Below the pieces are notes generated by a model. That model was not told the origin of the DNA and did not search any database. It saw only the letters and a program-made list of their open reading frames with translations. Below, piece by piece: positions 37,391 through 44,323 of a DNA stretch of 64,000 nt; position 1 is the first letter of the stretch; each line of letters opens with the position of its first letter. The translations under genes were made by a program, and so were the position numbers. Source of the stretch: Verrucomicrobiota bacterium (GTDB lineage: Bacteria > Verrucomicrobiota > Verrucomicrobiia > Verrucomicrobiales > Akkermansiaceae); assembly GCA_040384845.1 (NCBI GenBank), contig JAZKIL010000014.1:40227-104226 (forward strand), read 5' to 3'.

Positions 37391-37460
37391 AAGCGGCGAG
37401 ATTGCCCGCACCGCCCGCTCACGTCAACATCTGTGATGCATGGAGTTTTTGAGAAAAAAC

Positions 37461-37862
37461 CTAAATCCCTTGGTTCCGCTCATTGACTTGGCGGTTCAGC
37501 GTGCAGAAATCGTAAAGCCAACCGATCCCGAACACACCACCCGTCACTAACCAAAGCAAACCGGTGAGAATTTTTCCTAAGTAAAATCGATGAATCCCGA
37601 GCAAACCTAAAAAGGTGAGGAGAATCCACGCCACCGAATAATCAAAGTTCCCGGTGGTGTAGCGATGATCCGCACGACGATCCATCCCGGGAATCAGAAA
37701 TAAATCGATCAACCAACCAACCCCAAGCAGACCCAAGGTAAAAAACCAGATCGCCCCGGTGATCGGCTTTCCGTAATAAAATCGATGTGCCCCGGTGAAA
37801 CCGAAAATCCACAAAAGATACCCTATCGTTTTACTATGTGTGTCGCCGCGCAGTTCATTCAT
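37461..37862 (-). CDS. Double TM2-domain membrane protein
   Basis: Two repeats: GFTGAHRFYYGK and GLLGIHRFYLGK. Confidence 0.88.
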   Translation of the reverse strand: MNELRGDTHSKTIGYLLWIFGFTGAHRFYYGKPITGAIWFFTLGLLGVGWLIDLFLIPGMDRRADHRYTTGNFDYSVAWILLTFLGLLGIHRFYLGKILTGLLWLVTGGVFGIGWLYDFCTLNRQVNERNQGI

Positions 37863-37974
37863 TTCAGGAAGTCTGCTTCATATCTTCCTGCTGTCATGAA
37901 AAAAGAAAATGCCCAACACATTTCGAGTTGGGCAAGAAGTGATCCCTAACTGGGAGCAGGAAAATCCGTTGGGG

Positions 37975-38481
37975 CTACTTTCTAGCGTGTTTTTTGTCCG
38001 AGCACTCGCACGCAGGCTCACCGGCTGCGGGCACGACCTCATGAATGGTGATCGTTCCACCAGCTGGGCATTTCAGCGCGGCAGCACCGCCAAGTTTCAG
38101 CTTGATAGCTTCAACATCGAGTGCGGCTCCCGGCTCGAGAGCTTTTTCAGCTTGGTATTCACTTACTGCCTCATCGATTTTGATCTGCAACATCATGCAC
38201 TTAGCGACATCCGAGCCCATTTTCCATGCGGTTCCTCCGACTGCAACCATCGCGATGACGGAAACAATGGTGACCAAAAGGCCAATGTAACCCAAAATCA
38301 TCCCGGCAAGAGCCAAGCCAGATCCCGTCAGCTGACCGGAAGATTTTTTAATGCCAGACATCGCCATGTGGCCAAAAACAACGGCGAGTGGGGAAATGCA
38401 TGTTAGGCCTGTGATCAAACTGGCAATTGCCAAGCCGGATGTTTTAGGAGCGGAGGTATAAGGTGATTCGGTGGTTTGCAT
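37975..38481 (-). CDS. DUF4190 membrane protein with Cys-containing C-terminal domain
   Basis: SGLAIASL, GHMA...IKKS.G.LTG.GLALAG.ILGY; tail CPAGG...C.CS..H. Confidence 0.8.
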   Translation of the reverse strand: MQTTESPYTSAPKTSGLAIASLITGLTCISPLAVVFGHMAMSGIKKSSGQLTGSGLALAGMILGYIGLLVTIVSVIAMVAVGGTAWKMGSDVAKCMMLQIKIDEAVSEYQAEKALEPGAALDVEAIKLKLGGAAALKCPAGGTITIHEVVPAAGEPACECSDKKHARK

Positions 38482-38648
38482 AATTTGACTCGTGCAGGCT
38501 GGTGTGAATTTTTCGAAAGTTCAAGAGGCATTTCGTGACCCTATTTTGGATATCCTAACAAACTCATTCACCCTCAAGCGGCTTATAAATCAATCCCCCT
38601 CATGGCTTGGCTCGCAAACTGCTAAAGTTAGGCGATCACGTAAAACCC

Positions 38649-40079
38649 ATGCTAAACGGATACCAGCCAGACGCTTTTTTCGATGAAATGTTTCAATCGG
38701 ACGGCAAGGTCCGGCAACATTGTGCGCCACTCTTCGACCGCATCGCGGCACTGGATCAGAACGATTTCGAGGCGCGCAAGGCGACCTGTGAGCTGTATTT
38801 CCTAACCCAAGGCGTCACCTTCAATGTCTACCACGACTCGCGAGGCAGCGAACGCATTTTCCCCTTCGATCCCGTGCCCCGGGTCATTCCTGCGGATGAA
38901 TGGGAACATCTCGAGTCCGGCCTGATCCAGCGGATCACTGCACTCAATCTTTTTCTTCACGATATTTATCACGATCAACAAATTCTCAAAGACGGCATCA
39001 TCCCTCGCTCGTTCATCGAGGGGGCTAGGCATTATCGCCCCGAGTTCCGTGGCATCGATGTTCCTGGCGATATCTACATTCACATTTGCGGCAGCGATCT
39101 CATCCGCGACGACAAAGGCGAATGGCTGGTGCTCGAAGACAACGGCCGCTGCCCTTCCGGCGCATCATACTTGTTAGAAAATCGCAAGGCGCTGAAACGG
39201 GTTTTCCCGGATTTGTTCGATACTTCGTCAGTGCGCTCGGTCGATTCCTATCCGCTCGATGTGTTGGAAATGCTGCGCCACATCGCGCCGCGAAAATCCG
39301 GCAACCCCGTCTGCGTGTTGCTCACTCCCGGCTGTCACAACAGCGCTTATTTCGAGCATTGTTATCTCGCGCGCGAAATGGGGATCGAGATTGTTGAGGG
39401 TCGGGATCTGGTCGTGCGCGACAATGTGGTCTACATGCGCACGACTCGCGGCTTGGAGCGCGTCGACGTCATTTACCGTCGCATCGATGACGATTTCATC
39501 GATCCCGTGGTGTTCCGGAAAGATTCCGTGCTCGGCGTCCCTGGCATCATGAATGCCTACCGCGAAGGAAATGTCGCGCTCGCGAATGCGGTTGGAACCG
39601 GAGTGGCGGATGACAAGGCGATCTACGCTTTCGTTCCCGACATCATCCGCTACTACCTCGCGCAGGAGCCGATTTTACAAAACGTCCCCACCTATCTCGC
39701 CGCGAAGGATGACGATTTGCGTTACATTCTCGATCACTTGCCGGAGCTCGTCGTGAAAGCCACCAATGAATCCGGCGGATACGGCATGCTCATGGGGCCT
39801 GCGGCCAGCAAATCGGAAATCGCTGAATTCCGCAAACTCATCATCGCGGATCCCACGAACTACATCGCCCAACCCGTGGTTTCACTCTCCCGCTGCCCGA
39901 CGTGGTGCGATGAAACCATGGAAGGCCGCCACGTTGATCTCAGGCCCTACATCATTTATGGAGAAACCCCACGCATCGTTCCCGGTGGACTCACCCGTGT
40001 TGCTTTGAAAAAAGGCTCACTGGTCGTGAACTCGTCCCAAGGCGGCGGCAGCAAAGACACCTGGGTCCTCCGCCACTAA
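38649..40079 (+). CDS. Circularly permuted type 2 ATP-grasp protein
   Basis: [86 protein letters not shown]. Start at MLNGY. Confidence 0.93.
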
Positions 40080-40105
40080 GAAAACCCATCACTTTTTAAA
40101 GAACC

Positions 40106-41143
40106 ATGCTCTCTCGTGTCGCCAACACTCTTTACTGGATGGCCCGCTATGTCGAACGTGCGGATAACCTCGCGCGTCTTATCGATGTGAATCGCCACCT
40201 TCTGTTAGACAACGAAACGCTTGGCAGCGATCGCATCGCGGATTTCTGGAGACCCATCATTCTCTGCACCGGAGATGAGGAACAATACCACACGCTTTAC
40301 CCGGAAACATACGGCGAAGACGTGATCCGATTTCTAACAGATGACCCGAGGAACGTGAGCAGCATCGCTTCCTGCATCGCCCAAGCACGCGAAAGCGCAC
40401 GCACGGTTCGCGATCAGCTTTCCGATGAAATGTGGGAGGAAATCAACGCCCTGCATCTTTTCGTGCGCTCGGACGAAGCCGCCAATCTCCTGCATGAAGC
40501 ACCGCCGCGCTACTATGAACGCATTCGCCGCTCGGTCGCCACTTTCCTCGGGATTTCCGCCACCACACATCCCCGTGATGAAGGCTGGGAGTTTATGGAA
40601 CTCGGGCGTCACCTCGAACGCGCGGATAAAACCACGCGTTTCCTTGATACGACTTCTTACCTACCCGAAGTCAGCCAAGGAAGCGGCAGCGCACCTGGCA
40701 TGATGCATTGGAATGCGATCTTGGGTTCCTGCGGTGCGCTCGGCGCTTTTCGTGCCGGTCATCATCGCTTCGATGCCGAAGGCGCACTTGGTTTTCTGGT
40801 TTTTTCCAGAAACTTTCCTCGCTCGGTTCGTTACTGCATGGATCGGGTCGACGAATGCATCCACCAAATTTCCGGAAGTCCACGCGGTGGTTTCCTCAAC
40901 GAAGCCGAACGCGAAAGCGGCATGCTTCTCGCCGATCTCAGCTACGGCACCGCCGAAGAAGCGATGACGCTTGGCTTGCATCCTTACCTCGATGGATTGC
41001 AGGAACGCTTCAACCGCATCGGTGAACTTGTTTTCGAGACATTTGTCCTCATGCCAGAAATGTTCGAATCGCAACGCAGCATGCAACAGCGGGGGCACGA
41101 TGCCGTCACCGCATGGCAGGAACAACAACAGCAACAACAATGA
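40106..41143 (+). CDS. Alpha-E domain protein (DUF403) with poly-Gln C-terminus
   Basis: MLSRVANTLYWMARYVERA, ARESAR.VR...S.EMWE, GRHLERADKT (ER motifs), FPRS. Confidence 0.93.
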   Translation: MLSRVANTLYWMARYVERADNLARLIDVNRHLLLDNETLGSDRIADFWRPIILCTGDEEQYHTLYPETYGEDVIRFLTDDPRNVSSIASCIAQARESARTVRDQLSDEMWEEINALHLFVRSDEAANLLHEAPPRYYERIRRSVATFLGISATTHPRDEGWEFMELGRHLERADKTTRFLDTTSYLPEVSQGSGSAPGMMHWNAILGSCGALGAFRAGHHRFDAEGALGFLVFSRNFPRSVRYCMDRVDECIHQISGSPRGGFLNEAERESGMLLADLSYGTAEEAMTLGLHPYLDGLQERFNRIGELVFETFVLMPEMFESQRSMQQRGHDAVTAWQEQQQQQQ

Positions 41144-41222
41144 AGTTGTTGTTGGTGATTCGTTATGGGTTATTCGTTATCTGTAATCCGTCTGCCAGAT
41201 TGATCATCATCCTTGTCATCGC

Positions 41223-42065
41223 ATGAAGCTCTCCGTTGTTCACCGCACCATCTTCCGTTACGGGGGGCCTGTCACTGACAGCGTGAACGAGCTGCATCTC
41301 GAACCACGTACGTTTCCGTTTCAAAAAACGCTTTCGTCGTTGATCCGTGTGTTACCGGCCACTCGCTTGAGTAAATTCCAAGACCTTTTTCAAAACACCA
41401 CGCATCATTTCGAAATTCAGAGAAGCCATCAACATCTCGAAATCGAAAGCCGGATTCGCGTCCACAACCTCCCGCTGGAAATTCCAGACGAGGCCCGCGC
41501 CGCAACCAAAGAAATTTACCGCACGCCCGCTGTGCAGGATCGCAGTTGGCCTTATCTCAACGAAAGCGCGCGCGTGATATTCCGCCCGGAAATTTGGCGC
41601 CAAGCTCTCGATCTCACCTTTGCTCAACCTGCTTATTTCGACAAAGCGACTGAGATCATGAATTGGATCCACTCCGAGTTCCGCTACGAACCCGGCAGCA
41701 CCGATGTCACGACTCATCTCGATCAATGTTTCACCGAGAGACGTGGAGTTTGCCAAGATTTCACTCACGTCATGTTAGGACTTTGCCGCGCCGCTGATAT
41801 TCCCGCGCGTTACGCTTCCGGCTATCTTTACAACGGCCCGCGCGATCATCTTATCGGTGCCCAGGCCTCCCACGCATGGGCAGAGGTATTTCTCCCCGTC
41901 GTCGGCTGGATCGGCTTCGATCCCACCAACAACACCCTCGCCGATGCTCGCTACGTCAAAATCGCCGTCGGCCGCGATTACGAAGACGTTGCCCCCATCC
42001 GTGGCACCTACCGCGGATCCGCCCACTGTCAGATGGACGTCGATGTGTTGGTGGAGGCGATTTGA
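41223..42065 (+). CDS. Transglutaminase-like protein (bacterial N-terminal domain plus core)
   Basis: H.T.FRY, GVCQDFTH, ARYASGY, SHAW.EV, GFDPTN, GRDY.DV.P (Cys-His-Asp triad). Confidence 0.93.
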   Translation: MKLSVVHRTIFRYGGPVTDSVNELHLEPRTFPFQKTLSSLIRVLPATRLSKFQDLFQNTTHHFEIQRSHQHLEIESRIRVHNLPLEIPDEARAATKEIYRTPAVQDRSWPYLNESARVIFRPEIWRQALDLTFAQPAYFDKATEIMNWIHSEFRYEPGSTDVTTHLDQCFTERRGVCQDFTHVMLGLCRAADIPARYASGYLYNGPRDHLIGAQASHAWAEVFLPVVGWIGFDPTNNTLADARYVKIAVGRDYEDVAPIRGTYRGSAHCQMDVDVLVEAI

Positions 42066-42225
42066 ACGCAGCGGAGATGGAAGGATTGATATTCCACCAA
42101 CATTTCCTCAAATTTTATCAGCTGTACCAATTTTCACCAACCCTACCCGTACTAGGCAGCAGGATGCAGCCGCTCCTTGGTTAAAAAGACTTGCGCCGGG
42201 ACGATTGCCACCCTACCTCAAGCCC

Positions 42226-42663
42226 ATGGCTAACGAAACCACGCTGATTCTTTTCAAACCCGACGCTGTCACCAAAAACCTTGCTGGCGAGGTGCTTGCC
42301 CGTTTTGCGAAAGAAGGTTTCGTGGTCCGCGGGATCAAAATGATGACCCTCAGTGACGAAATCCTCGCTGAACACTACGCCCACATCGCTGCCATGCCGT
42401 TTTTCCCATCCGTGCGTGGTTTCATGCAGGAAACCCCGGTCATCGCTCTTGCGCTTGAAGGAGATAACGTCATCTCCCGCGTCCGTGATCTCCTTGGCCC
42501 GACCGATTCGACCACCGCTGCCGCAGGCACGATCCGTGGCGACTTTGGCGACAAATCCGGCGACTCGAAAATGCGCAACGTCTGCCACGCTTCCGATTCA
42601 CCGGAAGCCGCCGCCGCAGAAATCAAACGCTTCTTCAAAGAAGGCGAGATTTTCTCTTACTAG
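42226..42663 (+). CDS. ndk: Nucleoside diphosphate kinase
   Basis: TLILFKPD, HY..., GTIRGDFG, N..HASDS. Start at MANETT. Confidence 0.96.
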   Translation: MANETTLILFKPDAVTKNLAGEVLARFAKEGFVVRGIKMMTLSDEILAEHYAHIAAMPFFPSVRGFMQETPVIALALEGDNVISRVRDLLGPTDSTTAAAGTIRGDFGDKSGDSKMRNVCHASDSPEAAAAEIKRFFKEGEIFSY

Positions 42664-42704
42664 GTCTTCGAGAGATTTTTGCGAAGCCATAGAGATTCAC
42701 GTCC

Positions 42705-43451
42705 ATGAGCTTCAGCCTGCTGCTTCACGAAATTGAGCATCCGCCAACAAGGCAGATGTTAGAGGAATTATCCTTAAAAGTCCCAGGCATCGCGAAAGCG
42801 GACTGCGCGGGATTTTTAGAACATTGGTGTGGGATTGTCGCCTCAAATCTTGAGCTCCAGGATGCCCAAGCATTTCAAGCCGCACTGCGCGGCGCGGGTT
42901 ATGAAACCGACATTGTGTTAGATCGAGACGTCCCCGCACTGCATTCGGACTACCGCTGCCAACGGATCGCGCTCACGGATCAATGGATCCTGCTCAGCGA
43001 TGCAATGGGAAGAAGTAGGAACAAACCCCGGAATGAATTGGTATTCGCTGCGGCGGGAGTCGTGGAGAAACAGAAACTAATGACCAAGTTTAAGCTTGAG
43101 ATCGAGACACGAGAGATGGGGCGAAGCCGTTACGATGCTCTCGCTGAGAAGCGATACAAACAGGAAGTCGACAAAATCTTTTTCCGTATCGATCTATTCT
43201 TTAGCACTGAGCCACATCGGATTTCGTTAGAGATTGATCACGAAAGCGTCTTGTTTTACGCAACTCGGCCGATTCGATTGAAGGATACCTTGAATCTAAA
43301 AATCCTGATGACCGATCTTCATGCCTTGTTACCGCCGGATCGGACAAACACCAGCGTACGTGAGCGATCGATGGATCACACTTATTCCAGCATGAATGCT
43401 TACGAAGAGGAAATCCGCTGGGCGTTTTATCGCCTCGGGGCGAAAGCTTAA
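42705..43451 (+). CDS. Hypothetical protein, 248 aa
   Basis: Long ORF co-oriented after ndk; no motif recognised. Confidence 0.75.
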   Translation: MSFSLLLHEIEHPPTRQMLEELSLKVPGIAKADCAGFLEHWCGIVASNLELQDAQAFQAALRGAGYETDIVLDRDVPALHSDYRCQRIALTDQWILLSDAMGRSRNKPRNELVFAAAGVVEKQKLMTKFKLEIETREMGRSRYDALAEKRYKQEVDKIFFRIDLFFSTEPHRISLEIDHESVLFYATRPIRLKDTLNLKILMTDLHALLPPDRTNTSVRERSMDHTYSSMNAYEEEIRWAFYRLGAKA

Positions 43452-43456
43452 GTCTG

Positions 43457-44323
43457 TTAGGCGCGCATTTTCGAGTAAGCGCGCAAGTAGCCCACGCACT
43501 GTGCGATTTCCGGCAAGTTACTGTCCCAGTTGTGTTCATACTCGATCGAAACGTTGCCTTTGAAACCATGTTTGCGGACTTCATCGAGGATCGCGACGTT
43601 ATCGATGATGCCGGTGCCGAATGGGCGGTCGTGCGTCCATTTTTCGATCGATTCACGATCTTTCATGTGGAACGAAACCACCCGTGGCGCGACTTTTTTG
43701 ATCACATCCAAAGGATTGAGCCCGCTGGTGGCCCAGTGGCCGATATCGGCGCAAATGCCAACGTTTGCGTGACGATCTTTGACTGCACTGAAAACGAAAT
43801 CCGGATCCCAGAGCTTGTAGTTCGGTTTCTTGGGATGGTTGTGGAAACCGACTTTGATATCGTACTCGGCAGCGAGTTTCTCGATGAGATCGATGGATTC
43901 GATGCTCTCGGTGTTGATGCTGTAGAGTCCGAGCTTTTTGCCTAAGTCAAACACGGCACGAGCTCCCGCTTCGTTGTTTGGGATCCCAATCACGCCCATG
44001 CTTTGAGCGACGATGTTGTTTGCTTTGAGATGTTCGATGACCGCTTGGATCTTGTCTTCCGGCATGCCCGGACCGAAATTCACCTTATCGTGAGCGCCGC
44101 CTAAAGCCTGGCCGGAAAACACTTCCACTCCACCGACACCGGCAGCTGCGGCCATTTCGATCGCCTGAAACAAACTGAATTTTTTGAGCGACCAGCATTG
44201 CACCGTGATTCCGAAACCTGCCGCTGTCACCGCCGCTTGCGGAATAGGCGCGCCTTTTGAACGGAGAGCCAACAAAACAGATGCGGCAGGAATCATGGTA
44301 AACAGGGAACGACGTTTCATCAT
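43457..44323 (-). CDS. Sugar phosphate isomerase/epimerase (AP endonuclease 2 TIM barrel) with Tat-like leader
   Basis: MKRRSLF leader, HNHP, DIGHW, FHMKD, SIEYE. Start at MMKRR. Confidence 0.88.
   Translation of the reverse strand: MMKRRSLFTMIPAASVLLALRSKGAPIPQAAVTAAGFGITVQCWSLKKFSLFQAIEMAAAAGVGGVEVFSGQALGGAHDKVNFGPGMPEDKIQAVIEHLKANNIVAQSMGVIGIPNNEAGARAVFDLGKKLGLYSINTESIESIDLIEKLAAEYDIKVGFHNHPKKPNYKLWDPDFVFSAVKDRHANVGICADIGHWATSGLNPLDVIKKVAPRVVSFHMKDRESIEKWTHDRPFGTGIIDNVAILDEVRKHGFKGNVSIEYEHNWDSNLPEIAQCVGYLRAYSKMRA

Follow-up and report, generated by a model that had tools for sequence, protein, structure and literature searches.

A predicted sigma-54 promoter and an oligo-glutamine Alpha-E tail in an ATP-grasp/Alpha-E/transglutaminase operon of a freshwater verrucomicrobium

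We analysed a 64,000-nucleotide (nt) stretch of forward-strand DNA from a member of the Verrucomicrobiales (assembly GCA_040384845.1, contig JAZKIL010000014.1; the whole stretch is called the window below), in which three neighbouring genes encode a circularly permuted (CP) ATP-grasp ligase, an Alpha-E protein and a transglutaminase-like enzyme. The locus is an intact, typical member of the known COG2308-COG2307-COG1305 triad family, whose chemistry is still unsolved. It carries a sigma-54-type promoter element that is conserved among its relatives and an Alpha-E protein that ends in a run of glutamines, and natural gene fusions indicate that the ATP-grasp and Alpha-E proteins probably work as one unit. 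The general scheme that we derive, in which a sigma-54-driven operon would supply an ATP-grasp/Alpha-E ligase unit together with a transglutaminase-like enzyme acting on a Gln/Glu-type amide, is in our judgement about evenly poised between right and wrong.

The triad was proposed as a peptide-ligation or tagging system by Valas and Bourne in 2008 (PMC3235984) and likewise by Iyer et al. in 2009, as the latter work is cited in PMC5666114 and PMC6376114. An earlier, sequence-only reading of the same DNA had assigned the three genes to this proposed triad and had held that its product was not biochemically established; the Pfam families found here in matching order confirm the assignment, and our literature search likewise returned no paper establishing the product. 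To our knowledge, the triad is among the most widespread bacterial operons still without a known product.

The triad and its conserved promoter element

The features of the locus, with the E-values of the family and structure matches in brackets, are the following:

38608–38623, + strand: predicted sigma-54 (-24/-12) promoter element TGGCTCGCAAACTGCT, with GG-N10-GC spacing, 25 nt 5' of the ATP-grasp ATG
38649–40079, + strand: circularly permuted ATP-grasp ligase (COG2308), 476 amino acids (PF14403, 8e-166; PF04174, 3e-150; PDB 3n6x, 4e-182)
40106–41143, + strand: Alpha-E protein (COG2307), 345 amino acids, all-alpha (PF04168, 2.7e-87)
41117–41140, + strand: C-terminal tail of Alpha-E, QEQQQQQQ, predicted with low confidence and likely disordered (predicted local distance difference test score, pLDDT, about 50 from residue 324)
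41223–42065, + strand: transglutaminase-like Cys-His-Asp enzyme (COG1305) with a bacterial N-terminal domain, 280 amino acids (PF01841, 1.1e-24; PF08379, 3.2e-20)

The three co-oriented open reading frames (ORFs) are separated by gaps of 26 and 79 nt. In Pfam, the ATP-grasp protein covers all 374 of the 374 positions of the CP_ATPgrasp_2 model (PF14403) and the Alpha-E protein 293 of the 294 positions of the Alpha-E model, while the third protein matches both Transglut_core (PF01841) and Bact_transglu_N (PF08379); NCBIfam holds no model for any of the three. The description of the locus as three tightly spaced, co-oriented genes with intact catalytic motifs thus stands, with the same coordinates, strong Pfam matches and conserved residues. 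The gene order ATP-grasp/Alpha-E/transglutaminase is kept in most of 80 loci, over a range of 97% to 40% identity, and because it is conserved in dozens of relatives the triad is not a chance arrangement.

Upstream of the first gene, the 16-mer TGGCTCGCAAACTGCT differs at 2 positions from the sigma-54 consensus TGGCACG-N4-TTGCW. At up to 3 mismatches this consensus is matched 92 times in the window (103 matches expected), so that a single match is not statistically special; we count the 16-mer as a promoter element because it is conserved across relatives, and not because of its match score alone. At 43 of 67 loci such an element precedes the ATP-grasp start by about 41 nt (by 36–85 nt in a few cases), compared with a background rate of 0.045 per 220 nt, and these 43 are every Verrucomicrobiales-type locus for which upstream sequence is available. 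The DNA farther upstream is unrelated between loci, where purE, TM2, DUF4190 or some other gene may be the neighbour. The operon of a paralogous set (type 2, see below) in the same loci serves as internal control: it lacks the element, with matches in 2 of 34 cases, scattered in position. In one related locus (L020:7916-7963) a sigma-54-like 16-mer, TGGCACGCGGTCTGCT, stands three times in direct tandem upstream of the ATP-grasp gene with 16-nt spacing (at -85, -69 and -53).

The conserved element also bears on the start codon. The ORF list offers a longer reading frame from a TTG at 38607, which we reject: this TTG lies inside the conserved promoter, and in two relatives (L003 and L008) the element is non-coding, since it either lies in another frame than the ATG or runs into a stop codon. 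The ATG at 38649, chosen in the sequence-only reading, is thus the correct start and the longer ORF an artefact.

Published work on the Anbu operon, which in its canonical form has a fourth gene for Anbu, a proteasome beta-like Ntn hydrolase, provides a context for such a promoter. The core of that operon (PP_2686-2688 in Pseudomonas putida, I35_5080-5082 in Burkholderia cenocepacia, and the Yersinia bercovieri cluster) shares the three Pfam families and their order with the window, and its published NtrC/sigma-54 dependence is matched by the sigma-54-type promoter found here (PMC5491218, PMC7801951, PMC8050072). In B. cenocepacia the homologous cluster I35_5080-83 is among the most strongly NtrC/sigma-54-dependent genes (PMC5491218), in P. 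putida the cluster PP_2685-2688 is induced by nitrogen limitation (PMC7801951, PMC8050072), and in Bradyrhizobium a sigma-54 site has been predicted before a CP_ATPgrasp_1 gene (PMC13207237). The genome to which the window belongs encodes rpoN and three NtrC-family activators, and a strict genome-wide scan places sigma-54 matches 29–94 nt 5' of the genes for the ammonium transporter (amtB), PII, a GS-II-like glutamine synthetase and glycogen synthase. These matches (C1:466173, C1:489726, C3:250739 and C3:222887) outline a small putative nitrogen-limitation regulon. By analogy with the proteobacterial clusters, the triad operon would belong to the nitrogen-limitation regulon of this organism, and its three genes would be co-transcribed from the predicted sigma-54 promoter.

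The enzymes, Alpha-E and its glutamine tail

Both enzymes of the triad are well conserved. In the ATP-grasp protein, encoded by the only CP-ATP-grasp gene of the genome, 63 positions are conserved in at least 97% of 106 homologues, and the nearest solved structure is the structural-genomics entry 3n6x; the Y. bercovieri ATP-grasp protein frees phosphate from ATP (PMC6376114). The transglutaminase-like protein, one of five transglutaminase-core genes in the genome, has C177, H217 and D233, which are invariant across 92 homologues, and aligns to PDB 3isr and to TgpA of Pseudomonas aeruginosa (6g49).

Alpha-E, also present in a single copy, has an E17-R18 pair and an E171 that are invariant in 46 sequences, and an R172 that is conserved in at least 90% of them. 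Its AlphaFold2 model is all-helical (pLDDT 85.5; predicted template modelling score, pTM, 0.83) with a C-terminus of low confidence. A sequence search against the PDB gave zero matches for Alpha-E, and a Foldseek search of its model against the PDB gave none at E<=0.001 (best E 0.23, template modelling score 0.26); hence no solved structure informs the function of Alpha-E.

A clue to this function comes from paralogues. Most relatives hold two sets of these genes, a stand-alone type 1 and a fused type 2, and in the latter (34 loci) ATP-grasp and Alpha-E form one polypeptide of about 840–880 amino acids. These fusions (found among L026-L079, for example L079:2543-5188) are followed by a transglutaminase-like gene of their own, and planctomycete loci have, between the type-1 and type-2 sets, a protein of about 1,100 amino acids with a transglutaminase domain. 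The window genome retains type 1 alone and has lost the second, fused set. By the Rosetta-stone argument, the fusion in the type-2 paralogue makes it probable that ATP-grasp and Alpha-E act as one unit. Mycobacterium tuberculosis has both forms, Rv2411c-Rv2410c-Rv2409c being the stand-alone and Rv2567/Rv2569c the fused ATP-grasp~Alpha-E version; these sets would parallel the type-1 and type-2 sets of the relatives studied here, whereas the window genome has the stand-alone form only. Rv2411c and Rv2567 have been tested solely as negatives for gamma-aminobutyric acid-trehalose synthesis (bioRxiv 10.64898/2026.04.15.718621).

The second distinguishing trait of the locus is the end of Alpha-E, which reads AWQEQQQQQQ. 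Among the 2,905 ORFs of at least 150 amino acids in the genome, it is the sole one with at least 4 terminal glutamines. Orthologues of Alpha-E with identities of 97% to about 40% retain a run of 3–11 glutamines at the C-terminus or close to it, behind a linker that varies. In the more distant of them the run follows a G-A-(Y/W/F)-H motif and an acidic stretch, and among planctomycete and deltaproteobacterial orthologues a Q/S- or Q/T-rich tail often takes its place. A glutamine-rich end is found in 29 of 131 diverse Alpha-E representatives, 25 of the 61 in the half of the family tree that contains the window and 4 of the 70 in the other half, so mapped on the tree the trait is clustered yet labile (18 changes, compared with 26 in shuffles). 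The type-2 fusions are without it. In two loci (L043 and L072) Alpha-E has no glutamine-rich end and the ATP-grasp protein bears such a tail (…QLQAQKQVQS and …ESQQSQQQIVARMAS). Judged by these sequence comparisons, the glutamine tail of Alpha-E is real, selected in this clade and non-universal. For Alpha-E as a whole, the fusions argue for the role of a subunit, and the tail keeps alive the idea that it might be a substrate.

We also considered a glutamine-codon attenuator hairpin at 41132-41154, formed by the CAA/CAG run and the downstream GTTGTTGTTG, and rejected it: in the window it is significant (z = -3.5), but it is unconserved, with a median z of -0.42 over 46 loci. In this duplex, evaluated against shuffles, the terminal CAA CAA CAA codons of Alpha-E pair with GTTGTTGTTG directly past the stop codon; a similar CAG/CTG pairing occurs in one Prosthecobacter subclade.

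What the triad may act on

In the scheme that we propose, the three genes would form one cytoplasmic operon transcribed from the sigma-54 promoter, its most likely activator being an NtrC-type protein that responds to nitrogen limitation. ATP-grasp and Alpha-E would be one ligase unit, in which the former would activate a carboxylate with ATP, giving an acyl-phosphate that is then joined to an amine, and the latter would serve as specificity or scaffold subunit. The transglutaminase-like thiol enzyme may carry out the opposing or a follow-up step on a Gln/Glu-type amide, i.e. deamidation, transfer or cleavage via a thioester intermediate, and the oligo-glutamine C-terminus of Alpha-E would be the best candidate for a physiological substrate or docking element. 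Complex formation and every chemical step of this scheme are inferred, as are co-transcription and nitrogen control in this organism.

Several points weigh against it. The AlphaFold2 model of a natural ATP-grasp~Alpha-E fusion reaches a pTM of just 0.57 and is too uncertain to show an interface, and in the work of Piasecka et al. the Yersinia operon proteins gave no stable complex (PMC6376114), which speaks against the subunit model. None of the three NtrC-family activators reaches the NtrC equivalog cut-off (best 426 bits, compared with 558.6), so the signal could be other than nitrogen. Most members in the other half of the family lack the glutamine tail, as do several planctomycete and deltaproteobacterial loci; not being universal, the tail cannot be essential to the chemistry of the family. 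Finally, the enzymes of the triad would suit a small-molecule substrate just as well.

This last possibility is the main rival, doubtful in our view but a serious one. In a pathway of small-molecule nitrogen scavenging, the ATP-grasp protein would ligate a free metabolite and the transglutaminase-like enzyme would later hydrolyse the amide to yield usable nitrogen, for example with a gamma-glutamylated amine as in the PuuA/PuuD route, or in the manner of glutathionylspermidine synthetase/amidase (GspSA); Alpha-E would then be a purely structural subunit and its glutamine tail regulatory or incidental, in keeping with the many family members that lack one. In GspSA itself, an ATP-grasp-type ligase is coupled to a papain-like thiol amidase that undoes the ligation. 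The window likewise combines an ATP-grasp-type ligase with a thiol enzyme, and 3n6x was deposited under the provisional name 'putative glutathionylspermidine synthase'. The families differ, however: the window ligase is CP_ATPgrasp_1/2 and not GSP_synth, the thiol enzyme has a transglutaminase core and not a CHAP domain (GSP_synth and CHAP are absent among the Pfam matches of the triad proteins at E<=0.001), and Alpha-E has no counterpart in GspSA. In Burkholderia and Pseudomonas, urease, nitrate and polyamine/amino-acid uptake genes share their regulation with the cluster (PMC5491218, PMC7801951), as would suit such a pathway. On the other hand, neither a transporter nor any other catabolic gene is linked to the operon here, its linked neighbours being ndk, purEK and membrane proteins; such a metabolite has not been found so far; and a small-molecule pathway leaves unexplained why a conserved tail that is unique in its genome stands beside an enzyme fold directed at glutamine.

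Next comes tagging or peptide synthesis on other cellular proteins, along the lines of Iyer et al. as summarised in PMC5666114 and PMC6376114, which we regard as unlikely. Here ATP-grasp/Alpha-E would build or attach a tag that the transglutaminase-like enzyme cross-links or removes, and in other bacteria Anbu would then process the tagged proteins. Two enzymes that make or break amide bonds in one operon would fit this proposal, and induction by nitrogen limitation would fit protein turnover (PMC7801951). A search of the 97%-complete genome with PF00227, positive as a control in 10 of 14 reference genomes, gave 0 matches, however, and thus no Anbu, HslV or proteasome; since the same holds for 116 of the 121 genomes of the order, tagging would have to work without a downstream protease. 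Nor did we find a conserved small peptide gene that could supply a tag near the operon, where the upstream DNA is unconserved and intergenic lengths vary across loci.

A narrower version of our own scheme, in which the oligo-glutamine tail is the system's built-in substrate or primer, strikes us as improbable too, if not out of reach. Under nitrogen limitation the transglutaminase-like enzyme might deamidate or thioester-activate the terminal glutamines; deamidation would release ammonia and create glutamates, and the ATP-grasp/Alpha-E unit might then re-ligate, extend or conjugate the tail at the expense of ATP. Two known systems offer an analogy, and no more than that. Pup-GGQ undergoes deamidation and then ligation, with PafA and Dop having a glutamine-synthetase-like ligase fold, and RimK extends the C-terminus of ribosomal protein S6. 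The window combines a Gln-ending tail that is likely disordered with an enzyme capable of amidase action and an ATP-dependent carboxylate-amine ligase, and this set recalls both the former (Pup/Dop/PafA) and C-terminal ligation of the RimK/tubulin-ligase type. Unlike in the Pup system, the ligase of the window is an ATP-grasp protein and not glutamine-synthetase-like as PafA/Dop, the tail sits on a folded 345-residue protein and not on a small tag, and there is no proteasome; the window triad is thus not a Pup-like tagging system and shares with it the terminal-glutamine logic alone. If true, the tail reading would describe a self-contained cycle of protein-tail modification with Pup- or RimK-like logic on unrelated folds, and a triad that occurs in thousands of bacterial genomes would have a chemistry assigned to it for the first time.

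Very improbable, finally, is that the third gene encodes a plain protease like Rv2569c of M. tuberculosis, functionally unrelated to the ATP-grasp/Alpha-E pair. In favour of this reading, casein and E-cadherin are reportedly degraded by Rv2569c (PMC11081392), the transglutaminase-like superfamily has a papain-like fold and 3isr was deposited as 'putative cysteine protease'. Against it, the activity of Rv2569c is insensitive to cysteine-protease inhibitors (PMC11081392), a poor fit with a Cys-His-Asp triad that is invariant; the strict linkage of the genes across phyla points to a shared function; and the window protein has no evident signal peptide (N-terminus judged by eye).

Genomic setting and significance

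Around the operon, ndk was considered as a further component of the triad, and as its linkage is confined to close relatives we treat it as a neighbour. On the 3' side of ndk, a 248-amino-acid ORF (42705-43451) without a Pfam match is present in some close relatives only, with 68–75% identity compared with >90% for the neighbouring genes, and is thus fast-evolving. On the 5' side, we reject a + strand ORF of 165 amino acids (37909-38406) as spurious: it has no family match, is overlapped by a DUF4190 gene on the minus strand, and shows only 63% conservation in a locus where its neighbours reach about 95% identity. The minus-strand ORF (37975-38481; E 2e-14), encoding a DUF4190 membrane protein, is probably the real gene there. 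An Rfam scan of 37400-43600 gave no riboswitch or other known RNA at E<=1.

The host is a freshwater member of the Verrucomicrobiales with a genome of 3.35 Mb, 97% complete, and one copy of the triad; the nearest related loci come from freshwater metagenome-assembled genomes labelled Akkermansiaceae, Luteolibacter or Prosthecobacter. No Anbu gene is adjacent to the triad, as the sequence-only reading had noted, and none was found by searching the genome. The further suggestion that this is a minimal three-gene version holds in so far as Anbu is missing; the arrangement is not unusual, however, and the real loss is that of the fused paralogous set. Alpha-E is present in 81 of the 121 genomes of the order (29 of 34 genera) and PF00227 in 5 of 121, so that absence of Anbu is the rule in this order, and COG2308 was already known to occur in genomes without Anbu (Valas and Bourne 2008, PMC3235984). 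The listed genomes without Alpha-E belong to one genus of the same family, are 2–3 Mb in size and highly complete; the pattern suggests a loss confined to this lineage, perhaps connected with life in association with a host. Compared with the Anbu operon, the window thus represents a verrucomicrobium without Anbu anywhere in its genome, in which the canonical four-gene form is not present. The oligo-glutamine C-terminus of the window Alpha-E is a candidate for a further difference.

The locus itself will not surprise a specialist; its value is that of a simple test system. The triad is tied to the origin of the proteasome through Anbu and to the response to nitrogen starvation, and here a streamlined freshwater genome of 3.35 Mb keeps it while encoding no relative of the proteasome. 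Retained alone in this way, it must be functionally complete by itself. What this copy adds to the picture are a sigma-54 promoter and a glutamine tail, both conserved, together with the evidence from fusions and the lack of a solved Alpha-E relative. Promoter and tail provide two concrete handles for testing what the triad does: the former would extend the nitrogen link from Proteobacteria to Verrucomicrobiota, and the latter, unique in its genome and encoded beside an enzyme with a glutamine-directed fold, opens the way to a cheap and decisive mass-spectrometry experiment.

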